UHGV virus genome: UHGV-0038965
Strand: one strand, 5' to 3'
DNA: 27,823 bases
From: a virus
In this document: piece by piece, positions 2,901-25,653 of the stretch
How positions within the stretch are numbered: the first letter of the stretch is position 1
How the letters are laid out: every line of letters starts with the position of its first letter
Program-made: the position numbers and the translations under genes
Notes under the pieces: model-generated
The model's input: the letters and a program-made list of their open reading frames with translations, nothing else
Databases searched by the model: none
What the model was told of the DNA's origin: nothing

Positions 2901-3656
2901 TTAAACTGCTAGTTGCAATTGCATTTCAAAGCGGTCGCGTTGTTCACAATACGCAAGAGAACCAGGGCTATTGTGTGCCTCAATCCGTTCTACCATTAAT
3001 GCTGCGCGTGTCTCTTTACTTGCAGGTGCATAAGCCCCAGACCAGGCTTTATCAATACCGATGTTTCGAGCGACGTTCGTACTATCTGCGCTGGCTAAGG
3101 GTAATTTTGTGAATATCAGCGGATTTAACATGCGCAATCCATGTAGTTTCGTAACCGGCTGACCATGCCCATCAACAATGTGACGAATCAGGTCTTTCAT
3201 TCTGGCTACCGCAAGAGTTGGGCGCTTTACGTCATAGTCGCCACAACTACCGATAGCCACTCGCGGAAACTCATTGCACAAATGAATAAATCGCGCGTCA
3301 CTTTCATTCATGTGCCACACTGGAACGCCAGCTAGTTTTCCGTGAGGCCACTCATTCAGAAGCGCATCATTTTCCTCCTCTCCGCCATCAATAATATCCG
3401 GGATAATGGCAAAATCGAATCCTGGGTGATTCTTCCAGCGAGCAACAAACTCGTAGTAATCGCTCCAGTCGATTTTGTTTTTGCCAGCTGCTTTCCAGGC
3501 GGTGAATGCACCGTTGTCCAGCGCGAACGACTGACAGTATTCAGCCGCGAGATTGATCTGGCCTGAATGCGCAAAACTGATAAACGCATGTCGCCCTTTC
3601 CATGCTCTCATTGCGCACGTATCAGGAGTAATAGGCCCACCGTGGTAGTGAATCAT
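2901..3656 (-). CDS. Hypothetical protein (about 251 aa), function unknown
   Basis: ORF 2901-3698 in the track. The preferred start is the ATG at 3656 (MIHYHGGPITPD...), which is preceded by AGGAG and sits next to the stop of the upstream gene. Contains an acidic stretch, DFAIIPDIIDGGEEEND. No family recognised with confidence. Confidence 0.55.
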   Translation of the reverse strand: MIHYHGGPITPDTCAMRAWKGRHAFISFAHSGQINLAAEYCQSFALDNGAFTAWKAAGKNKIDWSDYYEFVARWKNHPGFDFAIIPDIIDGGEEENDALLNEWPHGKLAGVPVWHMNESDARFIHLCNEFPRVAIGSCGDYDVKRPTLAVARMKDLIRHIVDGHGQPVTKLHGLRMLNPLIFTKLPLASADSTNVARNIGIDKAWSGAYAPASKETRAALMVERIEAHNSPGSLAYCEQRDRFEMQLQLAV

Positions 3657-3657
3657 C

Positions 3658-4065
3658 TCACTCTCCTTTGATGCGAATGCCAGTAGCGCGGATTGCATCG
3701 ATGACTTCAGAAACTTTGTATGCCATTACCGTTTGGTAATCATCGTGAAAATCTGTTCGATGAAGCATGCTGCTACGTTCCGGGAGCAGTATTTCCCGCG
3801 CTTCCAGTTCTGCAATGCGCTTTTTTGCTGCTTCCAGTTCATCCAGTAATTCCAGCACGGTAGCCGGATTAGCCTTGGCAACAAAATCCCGGACTGGCTT
3901 ACAATCAATCTCCGCAATGGGTTGATACGATGTGTAGCCATGCTGTCTTGTATAACTACCGTGACGAATAACGAAAAAATCACCATTTATTTTTTTAGCC
4001 TGCCACTTATCTTCACCGGCTTTCTCTGCCGCTTCACGCAGTGCCTGAGAGTTAATTTCGCTCAC
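3658..4065 (-). CDS. Ea22-like protein (135 aa)
   Basis: N-terminus MSEINSQALREAAE and C-terminus GIRIKGE resemble lambda Ea22. Shares the motif ANPATVLELLDELEA with the product of 12474-12887. Confidence 0.7.
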   Translation of the reverse strand: MSEINSQALREAAEKAGEDKWQAKKINGDFFVIRHGSYTRQHGYTSYQPIAEIDCKPVRDFVAKANPATVLELLDELEAAKKRIAELEAREILLPERSSMLHRTDFHDDYQTVMAYKVSEVIDAIRATGIRIKGE

Positions 4066-4673: not shown

Positions 4674-5027
4674 TCATACCTGGTCTCTCTCATCTGCTTC
4701 TGCTTTCGCCACCATCATTTCCAGCTTTTGTGAAAGGGATGCGGCTAACGTGTGAAATTCTTCGTCTGTTTCTACTGGTATTGGCACAAACCTGACTCCA
4801 ATTTGAGCGAGGCTATGTGCCATCTCGATACTCGTTCTTAACTCAACGGGAGATGCTTTGTGCATACAGCCCCCCCATTTATTATTTATCTCCTCAGCCA
4901 GCCGCTGTGCTTTCAGGGGATTTCGGATTACAGAAAGGCCGGGAAATACCCAGCCTCGCTTTGTAACGGAGTAGACGAAAGTGATTGCGCCTACCCGGAT
5001 ATTATCGTGAGGATGCGTCATCGCCAT
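4674..5027 (-). CDS. Hypothetical protein (117 aa) in the lambda orf60a/orf63 position immediately downstream of exo
   Basis: Position directly after exo, overlapping the exo start region by 10 bp. May be a fusion of two small lambda-like ORFs; not verified. Confidence 0.45.
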
Positions 5028-16808: not shown

Positions 16809-17891
16809 TTAGAACTGGTAAACCATACCTACAGCAACGATATCATCGGTAGCAACGCCAGATGCTTTCGTGAAATCGCTCTTATCAATCAGGTTGATTT
16901 TGTAGTCAACAAAAGTGGACATATTTTTGTTGAAGTAATAGGTTGCACCTACATCAACATATTCAACCAGGTCCTGATCACCCCAAACACCCAAGTCTTT
17001 TCCTTTAGAATGCAGGTAAGCAACGGATGGACGCAGGCCGAAGTCGAACTGATATTGTGCAACAGCTTCGAAGTTTTGTGCTTTGTTGGCAATATGGTTA
17101 TTACCAAAAACAGTCATGTTCTGGGTTTCAGAATAGGTGGTGGCCAGATAGATGTTGTTCGCATCATATTTCAGACCAGCTGCCCATACTTCAGCATTTT
17201 GACCAGAAGCATTCAGACCGTTGTTACCGTAGATAACCTGATTATTAGTGCGATCAGATTTAGCATAGGTTGCACCCACGCCGAATCCTTCATACTCATA
17301 AGTAGTTGAGAAACCGAAACCATCGCCATTAGCTTCAGTTACTTCATTTCGGTCATTTTTGCCCTGATACTGAGCTGCAAAGTTCAGGCCATCAACCAGA
17401 CCAAAGAAGTCGTTGTTACGATAAGTTGCAACACCTGTGGTGCGACCAGTCATGAATACATCTGTTTGGGTCCAGGTATCGCCACCGAATTCTGGCAGAA
17501 CGTCAGTCCACGCACCGATGTCGTATGCTACACCGTAGTTACGGCCGTAATCGATTGAGCCGTAGTCACCGAATTTCAGGCCTGCAAATGCAAGACGGGT
17601 TTTGTCTTTGGAGGAACCTTGAGATTCAGCGCGGTTGCCTTTGAATTCATATTCCCACTGACCGAAACCAGTCAGTTGATCGTTGATTTGGGTTTCACCT
17701 TTGAAGCCAAGACGGGCATAAGTAGTATCACCATCATCTGCATCATTAGAGGAGAAGTAGTGCTTAGCATTAACTTTCCCGTACAGATCCAGCTTGTTAC
17801 TGTCTTTATTATAAATTTCAGCTGCCTGAGCAGACATCGCCATCAGTACTGATGCAGCTACAGCAGAAATTGCCACTGTTAATTTTTTCAT
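16809..17891 (-). CDS. nmpC: Outer-membrane general porin of the OmpC/NmpC/Lc family (360 aa), lysogenic-conversion moron
   Basis: Signal peptide [23 protein letters not shown], a C-terminal ...VGMVYQF beta-barrel terminal motif, and overall similarity to enterobacterial porins. Lies opposite in orientation between Q and the lysis genes, as in DLP12 and PA-2. Confidence 0.92.
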
Positions 17892-18679: not shown

Positions 18680-19176
18680 TGCCTCCATCATTACGAAAAG
18701 CCGTTGCTGCTGCTATTGGTGGCGGAGCAATTGCTATAGCATCAGTGTTAATCACTGGCCCAAGTGGTAACGATGGTCTGGAAGGTGTCAGCTACATACC
18801 ATACAAAGATATTGTTGGTGTATGGACTGTATGTCACGGGCATACAGGAAAAGACATCATGCTCGGTAAAACGTATACCAAAGCAGAATGCAAAGCCCTC
18901 CTGAATAAAGACCTTGCCACGGTCGCCAGACAAATTAACCCGTACATAAAAGTTGATATACCGGAAACAACGCGCGGCGCTCTTTACTTGTTCGTTTACA
19001 ACGTGGGCGCTGGCAATTTCAGAACATCGACGCTTCTTCGCAAAATAAACCAGGGCGATATCAAAGGCGCATGTGATCAGCTACGTCGCTGGACATATGC
19101 TGGCGGTAAGCAATGGAAAGGTCTCATGACTCGTCGTGAGATTGAGCGTGAAATCTGTTTGTGGGGTCAGCAATGA
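18679..19176 (+). CDS. R: SAR endolysin (lysozyme, phage-21 R type), 165 aa
   Basis: N-terminal signal-anchor-release segment ([20 protein letters not shown]) followed by a T4-lysozyme-like catalytic region; immediately after the holin. Confidence 0.92.
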
Positions 19177-19637
19177 ACAGAGTAACCGCGATTATCTCCG
19201 CTCTGGTTATCTGCATCATCGTTTGCCTGTCATGGGCTGTTAATCATTACCGTGATAACGCCATCGCCTACAAAGAACAGCGCGACAAAAATGCCAGAGA
19301 ACTGAAGCTGGCGAACGCGGCAATTACTGACATGCAGATGCGTCAGCGTGATGTTGCTGCGCTCGATGCAAAATACACGAAGGAGTTAGCTGATGCGAAA
19401 GCTGAAAATGATGTTCTGCGTGATGATGTTGCCGCTGGTCGTCGTCGGTTGCACATCAAAGCAGTCTGTCAGTCAGTGCGTGAAGCCACCACCGCCTCCG
19501 GCGTGGATAATGCAGCCTCCCCCCGACTGGCAGACACCGCTGAACGGGATTATTTCACCCTCCGGGAACGACTGGTAATGATGCAGGCCCAACTTGAAGG
19601 TGCTCAGCAATACATAACCGAGCAGTGTTTAAAGTAA
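19173..19637 (+). CDS. Rz: Rz i-spanin (about 154 aa)
   Basis: N-terminal TM helix and coiled-coil periplasmic region; the C-terminal sequence resembles lambda Rz. The track ORF starts at 19161; MNRVTAI at 19173 is preferred. Confidence 0.88.
19393..19578 (+). CDS. Rz1: Rz1 o-spanin lipoprotein embedded in Rz in the +1 frame (61 aa)
   Basis: Lipobox LVVVGC followed by a proline-rich mature region ([21 protein letters not shown]), as in lambda Rz1. Confidence 0.88.
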
Positions 19638-19756: not shown

Positions 19757-21232
19757 TTGAAAGAATATTTAGATATGAATACATCTCATGTAAGAGTTGT
19801 TACTCATATGTGTGGGTTCCTGGTTTGGCTCTATAGTCTTTCAATGTTGCCACCAATGGTTGTAGCATTGTTTTATAAAGAAAAAAGCCTGTTCGTTTTC
19901 TTTATAACTTTCGTTATATTTTTTTGCATTGGTGGCGGAGCGTGGTATACAACTAAGAAATCTGGCATTCAATTACGTACCCGTGATGGGTTTATTATAA
20001 TTGTAATGTTTTGGATTTTGTTTTCTGTTATTAGTGCATTCCCTTTATGGATTGACTCAGAACTTAATTTAACGTTCATTGATGCTCTGTTTGAAGGGGT
20101 TTCTGGAATAACAACAACAGGAGCAACTGTAATTGATGATGTTAGTTCATTACCTCGGGCATATTTGTACTATCGGTCACAGTTAAATTTTATAGGTGGT
20201 TTAGGAGTTATTGTTCTGGCGGTTGCTGTATTGCCATTATTGGGTATTGGTGGTGCAAAGCTTTATCAGTCAGAAATGCCGGGGCCATTTAAGGATGACA
20301 AACTCACTCCCCGCCTGGCCGATACGTCACGGACACTGTGGATAACTTATTCTTTATTAGGTATTGCTTGTATTGTCTGTTATAGACTTGCAGGAATGCC
20401 TTTGTTTGATGCTATTTGTCACGGGATTTCCACAGTTTCGCTTGGTGGTTTCTCAACTCATAGCGAGAGTATCGGATATTTTAATAACTATTTGGTTGAG
20501 CTGGTGGCTGGTTCTTTTTCCCTGCTATCGGCTTTCAACTTCACTCTTTGGTATATTGTTATTAGCAGGAAAACGATAAAACCTTTAATCAGAGATATTG
20601 AACTTCGTTTCTTTCTGTTAATAGCCTTAGGGGTGATCATTGTTACCTCTTTCCAGGTCTGGCATATAGGTATGTATGACTTGCATGGAAGTTTTATTCA
20701 TTCGTTTTTTCTTGCCAGCTCCATGCTCACTGATAATGGTTTAGCTACGCAGGATTATGCAAGTTGGCCCACGCACACGATAGTGTTTTTGCTGTTGTCA
20801 AGTTTCTTTGGGGGATGTATAGGTTCAACTTGTGGTGGAATTAAGTCACTTCGATTTCTTATACTTTTCAAACAAAGCAAACACGAGATAAATCAGCTTT
20901 CTCATCCCAGAGCGTTGTTGAGTGTAAATGTAGGAGGGAAGATAGTTACAGATCGTGTAATGAGGTCTGTATGGAGTTTCTTTTTTCTTTATACTCTCTT
21001 CACGGTGTTTTTTATACTGGTGTTAAATGGTATGGGATATGATTTTCTTACATCATTTGCAACAGTGGCTGCATGTATTAATAATATGGGATTAGGTTTT
21101 GGGGCTACTGCATCGTCATTCGGAGTGCTTAATGACATTGCAAAATGTTTAATGTGCATAGCTATGATTCTTGGTCGCCTTGAAATTTATCCTGTTATTA
21201 TATTGTTTTCAGGTTTTTTTTGGCGCTCCTAA
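19757..21232 (+). CDS. trkG: TrkH/TrkG-family potassium uptake membrane protein (491 aa), moron
   Basis: Polytopic membrane protein with repeated GxG selectivity-filter-like segments (GITTTGATV, GIGGAK, GGFSTH, GSTCGGIK). Strongly AT-rich. Lies after Rz, where the Rac prophage has trkG. Confidence 0.85.
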   Translation: MKEYLDMNTSHVRVVTHMCGFLVWLYSLSMLPPMVVALFYKEKSLFVFFITFVIFFCIGGGAWYTTKKSGIQLRTRDGFIIIVMFWILFSVISAFPLWIDSELNLTFIDALFEGVSGITTTGATVIDDVSSLPRAYLYYRSQLNFIGGLGVIVLAVAVLPLLGIGGAKLYQSEMPGPFKDDKLTPRLADTSRTLWITYSLLGIACIVCYRLAGMPLFDAICHGISTVSLGGFSTHSESIGYFNNYLVELVAGSFSLLSAFNFTLWYIVISRKTIKPLIRDIELRFFLLIALGVIIVTSFQVWHIGMYDLHGSFIHSFFLASSMLTDNGLATQDYASWPTHTIVFLLLSSFFGGCIGSTCGGIKSLRFLILFKQSKHEINQLSHPRALLSVNVGGKIVTDRVMRSVWSFFFLYTLFTVFFILVLNGMGYDFLTSFATVAACINNMGLGFGATASSFGVLNDIAKCLMCIAMILGRLEIYPVIILFSGFFWRS

Positions 21233-21369
21233 TATATGGCTGATTTATAATTGTGAGTTTAATATTATGTTGACTCACTCATTGATCCAATACCTAACTT
21301 TACCAGCAACCCCTCCGTCCCCAGTAGCACTGGCTGCTGGGGTGCGTTTTATTCATAAAGCAAGGCTGT

Positions 21370-22161
21370 ATGAGCGAGAAATTAAAGATAGTCTATCGCC
21401 CATTACAAGAATTGTCACCGTATGCGCACAACGCCAGGACGCACAGCCCTGAGCAGGTGGCACAACTGGTAGAAAGTATTAAGCAATTCGGCTGGACTAA
21501 TCCGGTGCTGATTGACGAAAAGGGCGAAATTATTGCGGGTCACGGTCGTGTTATGGCGGCTGAAATGCTCAAAATGGATTCTGTTCCGGTCATTGTTCTG
21601 TCTGGCCTGACGGATGAGCAGAAAAAGGCGTACCGCCTGGCAGATAATCGCCTGCCGATGAATGCTGGCTGGGATGAAGATCTGTTGCGGATGGAGCTGT
21701 CGGACCTAATCAATGCTGATTTTGATGTCTCCCTGACAGGCTTCATCCCGACAGAAATTGATGAACTGTTGACGGATGTTTTGCCCGGTACAGGAAATGA
21801 GGAGGAGCCGTATACGACGAAAATTGATACGCCTGTTTATGAGCCGTCGGGCGGTAAACCGGATATCAGTGAACTGTACGACGATACGAAAACTCAGGAG
21901 CTGATCAGCCGGATACGTTCGGCGTCCCTTGAGCCTGATATTGAGAAATTCCTCCTGTGTGCGGCAGAACGTCACACGGTGTTTAATTTCAGCAGAATTG
22001 CGGACTATTACGCTCACGCCCCCTCTGAAATTCAGTGTTTTTTCGAGGAGTCGGCGCTGGTGATCATTGATTATCAGCAGGCTATTGAAAATGGATTTGT
22101 CCGGATGACGCAGCGCATGGTGGAGATCATGCATGGTGGTGAGGAGGAGGAATATGCGTGA
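21370..22161 (+). CDS. ParB/Srx N-terminal-domain protein (ParB-like nuclease/NTPase fold), 263 aa
   Basis: IIAGHGRVMAA matches the ParB GxxRxxA motif; an acidic C-terminal region follows. The stop overlaps the next gene by 8 bp. Confidence 0.75.
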   Translation: MSEKLKIVYRPLQELSPYAHNARTHSPEQVAQLVESIKQFGWTNPVLIDEKGEIIAGHGRVMAAEMLKMDSVPVIVLSGLTDEQKKAYRLADNRLPMNAGWDEDLLRMELSDLINADFDVSLTGFIPTEIDELLTDVLPGTGNEEEPYTTKIDTPVYEPSGGKPDISELYDDTKTQELISRIRSASLEPDIEKFLLCAAERHTVFNFSRIADYYAHAPSEIQCFFEESALVIIDYQQAIENGFVRMTQRMVEIMHGGEEEEYA

Positions 22162-23086
22162 TGATTTTTGCGCCTTTATTCTGACTCACGGGCGACCGGA
22201 CAAAGTTCTGACTTACCGGACGTTGCGTCGTGCTGGCTATACCGGGAAAATTTTTATCGTTGTTGATGATGAAGATAAGACACGGAATCAGTACATGGCT
22301 GAATTTGGTGAACAGGTGCTGGTGTTTTCCAAAGCCGATATCGCCAGTCGTTTTGACGAAGCCGATAATTTCTGTGACCGCCGCTCAATTTTTTACGCCC
22401 GTAATGCCTGTTTCGACCTGGCAAAACTGGTCGGGTGTAAATACTTCATTCAGCTCGATGATGATTATCACGAGTTCCAGTTTCGGGTGGATCGCAACTA
22501 TGACCAGGCCTATTTTCCGATAAGGAAACTGGATGCGATCCTTTCTGAAATGCTGGCGTACTACGAATCAATACCTGCTCTTTCCATCGCTATGTCGCAG
22601 GGCGGGGATTTTCTTGGTGACAATGGCGGCCATGCTTCGTGGGTGAAACGCAAGGCAATGAACAGCTTTATCTGTTCGGTTGATCGACCGTTCTCATTCA
22701 TGGGGCGCATTAACGAGGATGTGAATACGTACACGAATCTCGGTCGCTGTGGTGAATTGTTTATGACGATCGGTGCTGTCCAGTTAGGGCAGAAACAGAC
22801 GCAGAAAAACAGCGGCGGAATGACCGAGCTGTATCTGGATTCCGGAACCTACGTTAAAAGTTTTTACTCCGTCATGTATGCGCCGTCGTGCGTAAAAATC
22901 TCACTGATGGGTGCCAGCCATAAACGCATTCACCATCAGGTCACCTGGAACAACGCTGCAGTAAAAATCCTTCACGAAAAATACAGGAAGAAGACACCCT
23001 GCATATCAATGGGGATGACAAATGATTCCGTATTCGAAAGTCGAGTCTCTGGCAGCGTGCCGGATGACTGCACAACAAATCGCTGA
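22154..23086 (+). CDS. Hypothetical protein with GT-A-like features (putative nucleotide-sugar transferase), about 310 aa
   Basis: The N-terminal strand-helix-strand pattern ends in FIVVDDED, and a DXD-like motif sits in YFIQLDDDY. SD GAGGAGGAGG precedes the ATG at 22154 (the track ORF starts at 22133). Fold assignment is an inference from motifs only. Confidence 0.55.
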   Translation: MRDDFCAFILTHGRPDKVLTYRTLRRAGYTGKIFIVVDDEDKTRNQYMAEFGEQVLVFSKADIASRFDEADNFCDRRSIFYARNACFDLAKLVGCKYFIQLDDDYHEFQFRVDRNYDQAYFPIRKLDAILSEMLAYYESIPALSIAMSQGGDFLGDNGGHASWVKRKAMNSFICSVDRPFSFMGRINEDVNTYTNLGRCGELFMTIGAVQLGQKQTQKNSGGMTELYLDSGTYVKSFYSVMYAPSCVKISLMGASHKRIHHQVTWNNAAVKILHEKYRKKTPCISMGMTNDSVFESRVSGSVPDDCTTNR

Positions 23087-23273
23087 CGTTCTGGATGTTG
23101 ATCTGAACCGACTGAAAGAAAATCGGGAAGCAATGACAGATTTTTATGCGGCCATCCGTAAGGGCAGAGCGAAAGGTGAAGCCGAGTTACGAGCGGCATT
23201 GTTTAAGCTTGCCAGAAAAGGGGATGCCTTTGCTCTGCGCGAACTACTCAGGGTGGATAAAAATCAGGACTAA
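23022..23273 (+). CDS. Small hypothetical protein (83 aa or shorter), possibly DNA-binding and terminase-associated
   Basis: ORF directly upstream of terS; its 5' end overlaps the preceding gene, so the true start is probably internal (for example MTAQQIADVL at 23064). Confidence 0.4.
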   Translation: MIPYSKVESLAACRMTAQQIADVLDVDLNRLKENREAMTDFYAAIRKGRAKGEAELRAALFKLARKGDAFALRELLRVDKNQD

Positions 23274-23276
23274 CTG

Positions 23277-24371
23277 ATGAGCAGACCGGACTGGGGGGCG
23301 TTGCAGCAGGAGTATATTGCTGAATACACCCGCTCCGGTATATCTCCGGTGGCATGGTGTGAAGCAAGGGGACTGAATTACGCAACAGCCCGTCGTTACA
23401 TCAAAAAAACTCCGAAAAATGCGCAGACAGAAATGTGCAAAACTGCGCAAAAAAGTGCGCAGAAAAAATCTGCGCAGACTGCACAAAAGCGGAACGAAAA
23501 ATCTCAGGAAAAAAAGCCAGTATTCGATGCGGGCCTGAATGAGGGCGACGCGGAGGAATTTTCGTTCTGTCCCGATGAATTCGGCATTTCTGACCAGCAG
23601 GCTAAGTTTGCGATGCTTGTTGCTCAGGGTAAAAAGCCGACAGAGGCGTACCGACTAGCCGGTTATGAGGGGCAAGGTGCGACAGCTAACAGCAACGCCA
23701 GTCGTATGCTTAGAAATGCCAGGGTTTTTCGCGCTATCAGCTACTTCCGCAATCAGTACCAGAAACGCTATACCGCAGACCTGGATTTACTAGTGAGTCA
23801 GTTGATGGCTATTGTCCTGGCCGACCCCAATCAGCTTGCACAATTTCGCCGTGTTAACTGCCGTTATTGCTGGGGCGAGAATCATCTCTACCAGTGGCGC
23901 GATATAGCAGAATTCGACAAGGCAGCGGCGCAGGCTTCCAGAGATGGCAAACCCGAACCGGAATATGGAGGCCTCGGCTTTGTTGATAACGCCATACCCA
24001 ATCCGGACTGCCCGAAGTGCTGCGGTGAGGGAACGGGACAGCTTTATATGGCTGATACCACTCTGCTTGATGGGGATGCGCGGCAATTATATGCAGGGGC
24101 AAAATTCGGAAAATTCGGCGTTGAGATCCTGCTGGAGGATAAGGCTGCCGCCCGGCGTGAATTGTTGCGTTTGTTTTCTGCTGGCGGGGCTTTATGTGCA
24201 GATAAACGGCTACAGGAACTGGAAATTGAACGGCGCAGAATGGAAAACCAGAAGCTGCGCAAAGAGATCGAAACGGTGGAAGATAATGAACATCCCCAGC
24301 CTGTGGCGATCAATATTAATGTGGTTGATGCCAGAGTAAGGAGTGATGAAGATGATCTCTCCGACGCTTAA
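23277..24371 (+). CDS. terS: Terminase small subunit (N-terminal HTH, KQ-rich linker, Cys-rich zinc-ribbon-like region), 364 aa
   Basis: N-terminal HTH (ISPVAWCEARGLNYATARRYI); a Cys cluster (CRYCWGENH...CPKCCGEG); position immediately upstream of terL. Confidence 0.7.
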   Translation: MSRPDWGALQQEYIAEYTRSGISPVAWCEARGLNYATARRYIKKTPKNAQTEMCKTAQKSAQKKSAQTAQKRNEKSQEKKPVFDAGLNEGDAEEFSFCPDEFGISDQQAKFAMLVAQGKKPTEAYRLAGYEGQGATANSNASRMLRNARVFRAISYFRNQYQKRYTADLDLLVSQLMAIVLADPNQLAQFRRVNCRYCWGENHLYQWRDIAEFDKAAAQASRDGKPEPEYGGLGFVDNAIPNPDCPKCCGEGTGQLYMADTTLLDGDARQLYAGAKFGKFGVEILLEDKAAARRELLRLFSAGGALCADKRLQELEIERRRMENQKLRKEIETVEDNEHPQPVAININVVDARVRSDEDDLSDA

Positions 24372-25653
24372 TGTGCCTCAGGCGCGATTTCTTTCAATGC
24401 CCCATAAATTTAAAGCCTATATTGCTGGTTTTGGCTCGGGCAAAACATGGGTTGGGTGTGGCGGCATATGCAAGGGGATTTGGGAGCATCCAGGTATAAA
24501 TCAGGGATATTTTGCGCCAACGTATCCCCAAATTCGCGATATTTTTTACCCTACAGTGGAAGAAGTTGCTGCTGACTGGGGATTGAACGTAAAAATTAAT
24601 GAGGGAAATAAAGAGGTTCACTTTTATTACGGACGCCAGTATCGGGGAACCACTATCTGCAGATCGATGGAGAAGCCACAAACGATCGTCGGTTTCAAAA
24701 TTGGTAATGCGTTGGTGGATGAACTGGACATTTTGCCGAAGGAAAAAGCCAGAACGGCGTGGCGCAAGATAATTGCACGTATGCGTTATAAGATTGATGG
24801 ACTTCGCAACGGTATTGACGTTACAACCACGCCGGAAGGATTCAAATTTGTCTACGAGCAGTTTGTTAAAGCCGTGCGTGAAAAAACAGAGCTGGCCTCA
24901 CTGTATGGTCTGGTGCAGGCATCTACTTTCGATAATGAAAAGAACCTGCCAGCAGATTACATTCCTTCGCTTCTTGAATCATACCCTCCAGAGCTGATTA
25001 AAGCCTATCTTCGAGGACAGTTTACTAACCTGACAAGTGGTACTGTTTACCATCAGTTTGACCGGAAACTGAATAATTGCGAAGAAGTGGAGCAGCCAGG
25101 GGAGCCGATTTATATTGGGATGGATTTTAACGTTGGAAAGATGGCGGGAATCGTCCATGTGCTGCGTTTGGGGCTTCCATGTGCGGTAACTGAAATCATC
25201 AATGCCTACGATACGCCGGATATGATCCGCATCATTAAAGAACGCTTCTGGCTGTATGATGGGAATGATTACCGGAAAGTGAGGGAAATTTATATTTATC
25301 CAGATGCTTCCGGGGATTCCAGAAAATCAAGTAACGCAAGTACGACGGATATAGCCCAGCTTAAGCAGGCTGGTTTTAACGTTGTGGTGAACAGCTCGAA
25401 CCCGCCAGTAAAAGATCGCGTTAACTCAATGAATGCAATGTTCTGCAATGCCAATGGTGAGCGTCGCTATAAAGTTAATGTGAAGCGTTGCCCGTTATAT
25501 GCCGAATCTCTGGAGCAACAGGTCTGGGATGAGAAGGGGGAGCCTGATAAAAAATCTGGCAATGATCACCCGAATGATGCCGGAGGTTATTTCATCGTTA
25601 AGCAATTCCCTATTGTCAAACCGACCGGAAGAGTCACATCACTTCGGATTTAA
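24343..25653 (+). CDS. terL: Terminase large subunit (436 aa)
   Basis: Walker A-like GFGSGKT near the N-terminus; acidic nuclease-like motifs in the C-terminal part; sits between terS and the portal gene. Confidence 0.85.
   Translation: MMKMISPTLNVPQARFLSMPHKFKAYIAGFGSGKTWVGCGGICKGIWEHPGINQGYFAPTYPQIRDIFYPTVEEVAADWGLNVKINEGNKEVHFYYGRQYRGTTICRSMEKPQTIVGFKIGNALVDELDILPKEKARTAWRKIIARMRYKIDGLRNGIDVTTTPEGFKFVYEQFVKAVREKTELASLYGLVQASTFDNEKNLPADYIPSLLESYPPELIKAYLRGQFTNLTSGTVYHQFDRKLNNCEEVEQPGEPIYIGMDFNVGKMAGIVHVLRLGLPCAVTEIINAYDTPDMIRIIKERFWLYDGNDYRKVREIYIYPDASGDSRKSSNASTTDIAQLKQAGFNVVVNSSNPPVKDRVNSMNAMFCNANGERRYKVNVKRCPLYAESLEQQVWDEKGEPDKKSGNDHPNDAGGYFIVKQFPIVKPTGRVTSLRI

Follow-up and report, generated by a model that had tools for sequence, protein, structure and literature searches.

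Introduction

Glycosylation of phage DNA is currently understood as decoration of 5-hydroxymethyl pyrimidines. Characterised DNA-acting enzymes of the TAGT (TET-associated glycosyltransferase) group attach sugars to 5-hydroxymethylcytosine (5hmC) or 5-hydroxymethyluracil (5hmU) in DNA (10.1101/2023.12.21.572611; PMC8256090). The TAGT/JGT-like family, Pfam PF20691, includes phage enzymes glycosylating 5hmC (Pyle et al. 2023/2024; Burke et al. 2021), and among its relatives are the base-J glucosyltransferase of kinetoplastids and an enzyme of T-even-type phages labelled 'beta-glucosyl-HMC-alpha-glucosyltransferase'. For the JGT-like phage enzymes of GT-A fold which glycosylate 5hmC an active-site pattern R...DDD...EDY/F has been described (Pyle et al., 10.1101/2023.12.21.572611). 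The present work deals with a pair of genes in the virus genome UHGV-0038965, a lambdoid Escherichia coli prophage analysed as one stretch of 27,823 nucleotides (the window). The first open reading frame of the pair (ORF A) encodes a ParB-like protein and the second (ORF B) a TAGT-type glycosyltransferase, for which a role in late glycosylation of phage DNA is considered. While the TAGT family is known, its TET-less context next to the terminase genes, paired with a ParB protein carrying a particular C-terminal domain (CTD), is new.

ParB partners of phage DNA-modifying enzymes were demonstrated experimentally in 2026, when ParB176 was found to activate a phage thymine dioxygenase on double-stranded DNA (O'Toole et al., PNAS 2026, PMC13229309). 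ParB-dependent dioxygenases were linked there to kinases, amidotransferases and amino-acid transferases, and glycosyltransferases to a ParB-independent clade.

The gene pair and its junction

In the initial annotation of the window, made from the letters and their ORFs, a ParB-like gene overlapping by 8 nucleotides a gene for a GT-A-like protein had been noticed between lysis and terminase genes. Both ORFs and their motifs were found again in the ORF list and the translations:

21370-22161, plus strand: ORF A, ynaK-type full-length gene for the ParB-like partner protein, 263 amino acids (ORF list, Pfam ParB_N, phrog_620)
22154-23086, plus strand: ORF B, TAGT-family GT-A glycosyltransferase, 310 amino acids (Pfam PF20691, phrog_842)
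22141-22161, plus strand: coupling junction, read directly from the sequence as GAGGAGGAGGAATATGCGTGA
22141-22150, plus strand: strong Shine-Dalgarno sequence GAGGAGGAGG, GGAGG-rich, within the final codons of ORF A and 4-13 nucleotides upstream of the ATG at 22154
22154-22156, plus strand: start codon ATG of the TAGT gene
22159-22161, plus strand: stop codon TGA of the ParB gene, which leaves an 8-nucleotide overlap ATGCGTGA

ORF B might start at 22133 (317 amino acids) or at 22154 (310 amino acids). The latter is favoured, as homologues begin at MRDDF and PGAP picks the same start. With the overlap and the Shine-Dalgarno sequence in place, the two genes are translationally coupled, as had been proposed, and in nearly all loci examined the partner ORF ends at the TAGT start or a few bases away from it.

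The glycosyltransferase

ORF B matches PF20691 with an E value of 7.8e-35 and 121.1 bits at a cut-off of 27.5, the match spanning residues 8-222 of the protein and positions 4-205 of the 205 profile positions, and it matches phrog_842 with an E value of 2e-103. Judged by these scores and by those of ORF A given below, the Pfam and PHROG matches of both proteins lie far beyond chance. The name of the PHROG family, 'beta-glucosyl-HMC-alpha-glucosyltransferase', was rejected as a description of ORF B, being an inherited label with no hydroxymethylcytosine (hmC) pathway present. PGAP calls the protein a 'hypothetical protein', and homologues in UniRef carry names such as 'GREB1-related' and 'TET-Associated Glycosyltransferase domain-containing'. 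Many viral contigs encode homologues with 50-83% identity, as do Enterobacterales, Bacteroides, Lachnospiraceae, Prosthecochloris and Hyphomonadaceae. A search of PDB sequences with the TAGT profile yielded no match, nor did PADLOC give a defence-system match for TAGT.

The motif residues are encoded as follows:

22193-22195, plus strand: R14
22457-22465, plus strand: D102-D104
22715-22720, plus strand: E188-D189
22931-22936, plus strand: H260-H261

Among 12 close homologues (alignment A1) D38, D39, D41 and D102-D104 are invariant. Among 13 divergent homologues, down to 21% identity (alignment A2), this is true of R14, D102, D103, D189, K235 and H260-H261; D104 is nearly invariant, and from the aspartates of the motifs FIVVDDED (residues 34-41) and QLDDDY (residues 100-105) only D102 and D103 are fully invariant there. 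E188 precedes D189 in most homologues, not in all. The motifs are close to the published R...DDD...EDY/F pattern, not identical with it, as a valine follows ED instead of tyrosine or phenylalanine.

In the AlphaFold2 (AF2) model the N-terminal half of ORF B was predicted with a pLDDT of about 90. Of the 50 best Foldseek matches of the model in the PDB, all but a few related nucleotidyltransferases were GT-A glycosyltransferases (examples among the matches are 8d3z, 1qg8, ColGalT1 and glycogenin, with E values of about 1e-3), and the top viral matches in BFVD were TAGT-domain proteins (E 1e-17). From profile and predicted fold, ORF B is a GT-A glycosyltransferase of the already described TAGT family. 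The initial annotation was right in recognising a DxD motif and in assigning ORF B to the nucleotide-sugar transferases of GT-A type and not to the methyltransferases, and the structure predictions agree with it in giving a GT-A fold for ORF B (N-terminal half) and a ParB fold for ORF A. Its further suggestion of a possibly undescribed chemistry does not apply to the enzyme family, as PF20691, the UniRef names and the characterised 5hmC/5hmU relatives make clear, and is taken up below for the acceptor.

The ParB-like partner

A ParB/Srx domain at the N-terminus of ORF A, as initially annotated, is supported by Pfam ParB_N (PF02195; E 1.2e-6, 28.9 bits, cut-off 26.3) and by phrog_620, 'ParB-like partition protein' (E 8.5e-91). 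The AF2 model, with a mean pLDDT of 81.6, divides the protein into a nucleotide-binding domain (NBD, residues 1-100), two to three helices (103-134), a disordered stretch (137-153, pLDDT below 50) and a CTD of five helices. The following parts were delineated:

21370-21774, plus strand: ParB/Srx NBD plus helix-helix segment, residues 1-135 (AF2, Foldseek, HMM alignment)
21775-21864, plus strand: linker, residues 136-165, with conserved Y148, K151, P155, Y157, E158 and P159 in the motif YTxKIxTPxYEP
21865-22119, plus strand: helical CTD, residues about 166-250 (five helices at about 160-240 in the AF2 model, pLDDT about 90)

Residues 1 to about 140 superpose in Foldseek on CDP- or CTP-bound ParB, Noc, PadC and KorB, the best quoted fit being that to 6sdk (E 4e-7, root-mean-square deviation 2.8 A over 140 columns). 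Motifs of this part are ARNAR (N21, R23), S36, G41, GHGR (57-60, within IIAGHGRVMAA at 54-64) and DN (92-93). In the HMM alignment with Noc, GERR corresponds to GHGR, ENLQR to ADNK/R and FQPR to ARNAR. By this alignment the serine, glycine, arginine and asparagine contact positions are kept and the catalytic glutamate is replaced by histidine. No helix-turn-helix (HTH) domain is contained in the AF2 model, the Foldseek matches to ParB, Noc and KorB stopping at about residue 140. The score against TIGR00180, 38.5 bits, is under the cut-off of 58.45, and no ParA gene was found in the window.

The N-terminal 140 or so residues also match the ParB-methyltransferase fusions of phrog_498 (E 1.2e-50) and the PADLOC model MTase_II PDLC03229 (E 2.2e-38). 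In lambdoid and Stx prophages it is such fusions that are found ahead of the terminase genes, in the slot held here by the pair. The association of ParB-like domains with DNA methyltransferases, which had been pointed out in the initial annotation, holds for slot and N-domain. It does not extend to the C-terminal part of ORF A, for which Pfam gave no methyltransferase match; partner specificity appears to reside in the CTD, which had been missed.

Linker and CTD are covered by no Pfam or NCBIfam model, both matching the N-domain only. Y148, P155 and Y157 of the linker proved to be invariant among 44 partner homologues (alignment A4). With the CTD alone as query, 1189 cluster representatives out of 1.84 billion were obtained (50% identity clusters, E<=1e-3). 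Fusions of CTD and TAGT, sought as Rosetta-stone evidence, were absent from the best 150 CTD matches, in which the longer proteins owe their length to a doubled ParB domain, to an extended N-terminus or to an N-terminal segment that looks chimaeric.

Linkage of partner and glycosyltransferase

Two sets of loci were used to follow the pair. The TAGT-anchored set consists of the window and 111 further loci, with 52 distinct contexts below 85% identity, and the CTD-anchored set of 80 viral loci retrieved by the CTD alone, both sets together making up about 190 loci. In IMG/VR at least 574 stretches with the cassette were confirmed by tblastn.

In the TAGT-anchored set a ParB/CTD ORF is located immediately upstream of the TAGT gene and on the same strand in all but three loci. 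One exception, the Aeromonas T4-like phage 65, has a distant TAGT and no partner. In the other two, L020 and L100, the TAGT is fused C-terminally to a class-I S-adenosylmethionine (SAM) methyltransferase domain (Methyltransf_11/12/23/25), and the ParB/CTD gene is found 1.6-3.2 kb upstream of the best-scoring TAGT; the fused TAGT of L020 starts at the end of the ParB/CTD gene. In the reverse direction, a TAGT gene is present downstream of the CTD in 80/80 CTD-anchored loci and directly adjacent in 78/80. The remaining two carry an NAD-dependent sugar epimerase/dehydratase (PF01370, E 1e-38) between CTD gene and TAGT. These special arrangements are located as follows:

L020, 3581-5275: fused TAGT
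L020, 5190-6161: second, unfused TAGT
L100, 10001-11719: fused TAGT
L130, 4921-5940: inserted epimerase/dehydratase
L140, 434-1456: inserted epimerase/dehydratase

The inserted epimerase suggests that some phages supply a special nucleoside diphosphate (NDP)-sugar donor, and both the insertion and the fusion of TAGT to a SAM methyltransferase fit an elaboration of a sugar.

The ParB domain is less constant, being contained in the same ORF as the CTD in 69/80 CTD-anchored loci. Standalone CTD proteins of 123-148 amino acids, which also have the linker motif YTxKIxTPxYEP, were seen in several internal cases and in Vibrio phage pv27. They are neighboured by single-stranded DNA-binding protein (SSB) or PolA in the contigs and by primase, exonuclease and helicase genes in pv27. 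The latter phage also has a thymidylate synthase beside dihydrofolate reductase, which looks like an ordinary ThyA.

TAGT identity correlates with the identity of linker plus CTD with an r of 0.77, and of 0.66 among distant pairs (46 pairs); for the ParB domain the values are 0.43 and 0.09 (46 pairs). Because of these correlations the CTD is seen as the TAGT-specific element and the ParB domain as an exchangeable module, and it is proposed from these comparisons that the CTD serves as a TAGT-specific adaptor. The linkage of TAGT and CTD is strict in both directions, and the pair is a strict, mobile module, which occurs in viruses of Proteobacteria, Firmicutes, Bacteroidota and haloarchaea.

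One cassette-bearing metagenomic phage (L022, 17837-20316) has three Glycos_transf_2 genes and a fainter fourth GT2-like gene in tandem just after its capsid gene, an array which could build glycans of several sugars or glycosylate the virion.

Position beside the terminase genes

In the window the pair is directly followed by packaging genes:

23064-25653, plus strand: packaging genes immediately 3' of the pair (Pfam, PHROG, PGAP)
23064-23273, plus strand: small ORF between TAGT gene and terS
23277-24371, plus strand: terS, 364 amino acids, Terminase_2 (Pfam)
24343-25653, plus strand: terL, Terminase_6N/6C (Pfam)

The small ORF, of 69-83 amino acids depending on the start (23022 or 23064), overlaps the 3' end of the TAGT gene and matches only the middle (positions 145-218 of 319) of phrog_309, 'terminase small subunit'. 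By this partial match it may be a split or accessory terS element.

A homologue of TerL was found within 3.5 kb downstream in 59 of the 64 CTD-anchored loci with enough sequence, at a median of 1.3 kb, and in 37 of 52 representative TAGT-anchored contexts (38 of 52 at any distance). Sorted by the seed terminase that retrieved them, the terminases beside the cassette fall into at least five TerL groups. In Lactobacillus phage c5 the cassette consists of ORF1 and ORF2, the first genes after cos. Further cultured carriers are Lactobacillus phage phi jlb1 and Porphyromonas phage 005b, and the haloarchaeal virus HHTV-2 has the pair further upstream of terL.

Distribution in E. coli and the stump in K-12

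Of 5426 complete E. coli genomes, 1580 (29%) have a match to the 1.7-kb pair, and at least 80% of its length is present in 889 (16%, full-length pair). It was also met in ten 'phage' records of induced prophages; the phage records annotate ORF A as 'chromosome (plasmid) partitioning protein'. Comparison of the window with the Rac prophage of K-12 by blastn showed homology from trkG up to window position 21623, ending inside ynaK. The K-12 ynaK of 87 amino acids (NC_000913.3, 1425377-1425640) is a 5' deletion stump of the ORF A gene, and K-12 Rac is without the rest of ORF A, the whole of ORF B and the head genes. The K-12 gene ydaY had been considered as a TAGT remnant and was rejected, as it is unrelated by blastn.

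In strain QDFD216 (L001), PGAP tags the intact 263-codon ORF A as 'ynaK ... incomplete, missing C-terminus' (20001-20258, which is window 21370-21627), apparently because the K-12 reference ynaK is the 87-codon stump, and the label looks like an annotation artefact. The cassette has probably been overlooked because K-12 Rac keeps only this stump of the partner and PGAP calls intact copies pseudogenes.

Proposed function

The function that we prefer for the pair is a late, ParB-assisted glycosylation of phage DNA, a reading in which we place about as much trust as doubt. The pair would then be a self-contained, late-expressed module of two genes that glycosylates phage DNA shortly before packaging. 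ORF B would act as a metal- and DxD-dependent TAGT enzyme using a nucleotide-sugar donor. ORF A would be its obligate partner, with a CTD that docks or activates ORF B and an HTH-less ParB/Srx NBD that provides nucleotide-dependent engagement with double-stranded DNA, as shown for ParB176 and implied for the ParB-methyltransferase fusions of the same slot. DNA glycosylation is favoured because of the enzyme family, the DNA-clamp fold of the partner, the precedent of ParB176 and the placement by packaging or replication genes. This clamp fold and the one that drives DNA methyltransferases are interchangeable. The two proteins presumably form a complex through the CTD, with DNA as the presumed substrate, and the sugar product would shield the DNA from host nucleases.

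Several points weigh against this proposal. To our knowledge every characterised DNA glycosyltransferase requires a hydroxyl acceptor which is absent from canonical DNA, and a source of such an acceptor was searched for. Neither a TET/JBP dioxygenase nor a C5-methyltransferase, a thymidylate synthase-like hydroxymethylase or any other gene for base modification was detected among the roughly 24 larger ORFs of the window that were scanned, or among the smaller ORFs by their PGAP names; three window ORFs are without a Pfam match. No hydroxymethyl source was detected in the complete genome of phage c5 (31.8 kb, 50 ORFs), where the largest unassigned ORFs (139-208 amino acids) have no Pfam match, in three metagenomic contexts with precomputed Pfam annotation, or among the 20 neighbour families that recur most often in 50 contexts. 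Fourteen of these 20 families have a Pfam match (terminases, portal, MuF, Q, DnaC-like, scaffold, capsid, lysis proteins, PcfJ, YqaJ and DUF1367) and six have none. As single-copy neighbour families were scanned only in part, and most flanking ORFs outside the window and c5 were not scanned, the absence of TET/JBP enzymes and hydroxymethylases from the cassette is a strong trend and not an exhaustive exclusion. A genomic association with a 5-hydroxymethyl pyrimidine source (TET/JBP with or without a C5-methyltransferase, or a ThyS-like hydroxymethylase), as expected of TAGT/JGT-like DNA glycosyltransferases, was not found in the genomes and contexts covered.

Also to be counted on this side are the C-terminal half of the ORF B model, which is of low confidence so that a DNA-binding surface cannot be read from it, and the animal TAGT-family member GREB1, an O-GlcNAc transferase whose substrate is a protein (PMC7968844). 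About 65% of the glycosyltransferase contigs examined by Pyle et al. (10.1101/2023.12.21.572611) were without 5mYOX or ThyS and were judged 'less likely' to modify DNA. A literature report of a modified base was found for none of the cassette-carrying phages, and the literature on HHTV-2 and archaeal tailed viruses links no modification to these genes. A paper on a TET-less ParB-TAGT cassette was not found either, in a search which did not include the founding TAGT paper.

As no source of 5hmC or 5hmU is present, the acceptor in DNA would be a group on a canonical or host-modified base. With the usual hydroxymethyl acceptor excluded, unless a cryptic source exists, either a new acceptor chemistry or a protein target is left. 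The idea of a different chemistry in the initial annotation is in this respect somewhat strengthened, because no hydroxymethyl pyrimidine source accompanies the cassette. In its most far-reaching form the proposal would have the sugar attached directly to a canonical or host-methylated base in double-stranded DNA without a hydroxymethyl handle, possibly as a glycoside, N- or O-linked, at a heteroatom of a purine or pyrimidine. This would be a previously unknown class of modification, widespread in temperate phages, and is put forward tentatively, as something we would rather doubt than expect.

Alternative explanations

Glycosylation of a protein is the alternative that survives best, although we consider it unlikely. 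The target could lie in the partner itself, at the linker YTxKIxTPxYEP, or be a protein of the host, of the virion or of the packaging machinery, with the ParB/CTD protein as substrate or adaptor. Glycogenin, which primes itself by glucosylating its own tyrosine, is among the structural matches of ORF B; these matches, at E values of about 1e-3, reflect generic GT-A similarity. The invariant tyrosines and proline in the partly disordered (predicted) linker would suit an acceptor site but equally well a docking peptide. The lack of a hydroxymethyl-base source, the protein-directed activity of GREB1 within the TAGT family (PMC7968844) and the four GT2 genes within the head module of the cassette-bearing L022 speak for a protein target. 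Against it stand the fold of the partner, a DNA clamp common to DNA methyltransferase fusions, the activation of a DNA dioxygenase by the related HTH-less ParB176 (PMC13229309) and the replication genes adjoining the CTD-only variants.

Less probable still, and in our view improbable, is a conventional 5hmC/5hmU glycosyltransferase with an acceptor made by an unrecognised phage or host enzyme. Hydroxymethyl pyrimidines are the substrate of every DNA-acting relative that has been characterised, the Pfam TET/JBP model misses thousands of 5mYOX-like contigs (O'Toole et al., PMC13229309), and the three window ORFs without a Pfam match might be thought of here. Such an enzyme would, however, have to be accommodated in c5 with its mere 50 ORFs and with its largest unassigned ones of 139-208 amino acids, and only packaging, lysis, replication and regulatory families recur near the cassette in the 50 distinct contexts. 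Nor do we know of any host, from E. coli to Lactobacillus to Haloarcula, that makes 5hmC or 5hmU.

That ORF A is a classical ParB in partition or packaging and ORF B an unrelated moron, such as a surface-glycan or serotype-conversion enzyme, could be suggested by the 'partitioning protein' annotation, the adjoining trkG moron and a terminase-side position reminiscent of pac or cos recognition, but is very improbable in view of the lack of ParA and HTH, the TIGR00180 score under cut-off, the coupling and strict co-inheritance of the genes across bacterial phyla and archaea, the CTD identity which tracks TAGT, and an ORF B family made up of cytoplasmic DNA and protein glycosyltransferases, not of membrane Gtr-type enzymes.

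Other genes of the window

The gene order of the window is integrase, exo/bet/gam, cI-like repressor, O/P replication genes, nin region, Q, porin, lysis genes, trkG and head genes. Upstream of the pair the following features were noted:

19161-19637: Rz/Rz1
19757-21232, plus strand: trkG-like moron, TrkH-family potassium transporter, between lysis cassette and ParB gene
21319-21342, plus strand: terminator-like hairpin closing the trkG moron, 28 nucleotides before the ParB start codon (consensus scan only)

The trkG moron has a low G+C content, about 0.39 as compared to about 0.48 in its flanks. The OmpC/NmpC-like porin gene at 16809-17891, which is on the minus strand and separates the lysis genes from the Q antiterminator region, is another moron.

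Two neighbouring ORFs on the minus strand (2901-3698 and 2093-2890) comprise a 265-amino acid ORF beside a dATP/dGTP pyrophosphohydrolase (PF04447) plus DUF551 protein. The 265-amino acid ORF has no Pfam match and is similar to phrog_887, 'queuine tRNA-ribosyltransferase' (TGT), with E 6e-102 over profile positions 7-267 of 509 only, which by sequence makes it a candidate for the non-TGT half of a fusion family. Together the two neighbours might give the prophage a second function related to nucleotides or DNA. At 4674-5027 on the minus strand one ORF of 117 amino acids joins DUF1317 (residues 3-56) and DUF1382 (residues 55-114), where the annotation of QDFD216 has a frameshifted DUF1317 pseudogene and a separate DUF1382 gene instead.

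Comparison with known systems

The cassette is very common and sharply defined, and constitutes a large, coherent and strictly paired subset of the glycosyltransferase contigs that had been set aside as 'less likely' to act on DNA. If DNA is modified, the acceptor chemistry would be new and ParB-type activators would have a second client; if a protein is modified, GREB1 would have a new counterpart in prokaryotic viruses. E. coli lysogens and the cultured phages c5, phi jlb1 and HHTV-2 make the cassette accessible to direct tests.

With the TAGT/JGT-like enzymes ORF B shares sequence membership, the GT-A fold, the R/DD/D residues and the encoding by phages, and the cassette is, like them, sometimes accompanied by sugar epimerases or a second glycosyltransferase. 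It differs from them in having an obligate CTD-bearing partner, in being found without TET/JBP, C5-methyltransferase or hydroxymethylase, and in being anchored upstream of terminase genes in small temperate or siphovirus-type genomes. The homologous glycosyltransferase domain of GREB1 is part of a eukaryotic multidomain protein of 1949 amino acids which has a protein substrate and no ParB partner.

ORF A resembles ParB176 which, by its description (PMC13229309), is also HTH-less and composed of NBD, helix-helix segment, a linker of about 50 amino acids and a CTD. The nucleotide-contact positions N/R, S and R are conserved in the two proteins, and both are encoded beside a phage enzyme acting, or predicted to act, on DNA. 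The partner is a dioxygenase in the case of ParB176 and a glycosyltransferase here, the two CTDs being set side by side by description only. The canonical ParB of ParABS systems differs from ORF A, which has no ParA in the window, no HTH and GHGR for GERR. The ParB-DNA methyltransferase fusions (phrog_498; MTase_II) have a very similar N-domain, to which the SAM methyltransferase is covalently fused, whereas in the pair described here the catalytic protein is separate and would be recruited via the CTD.

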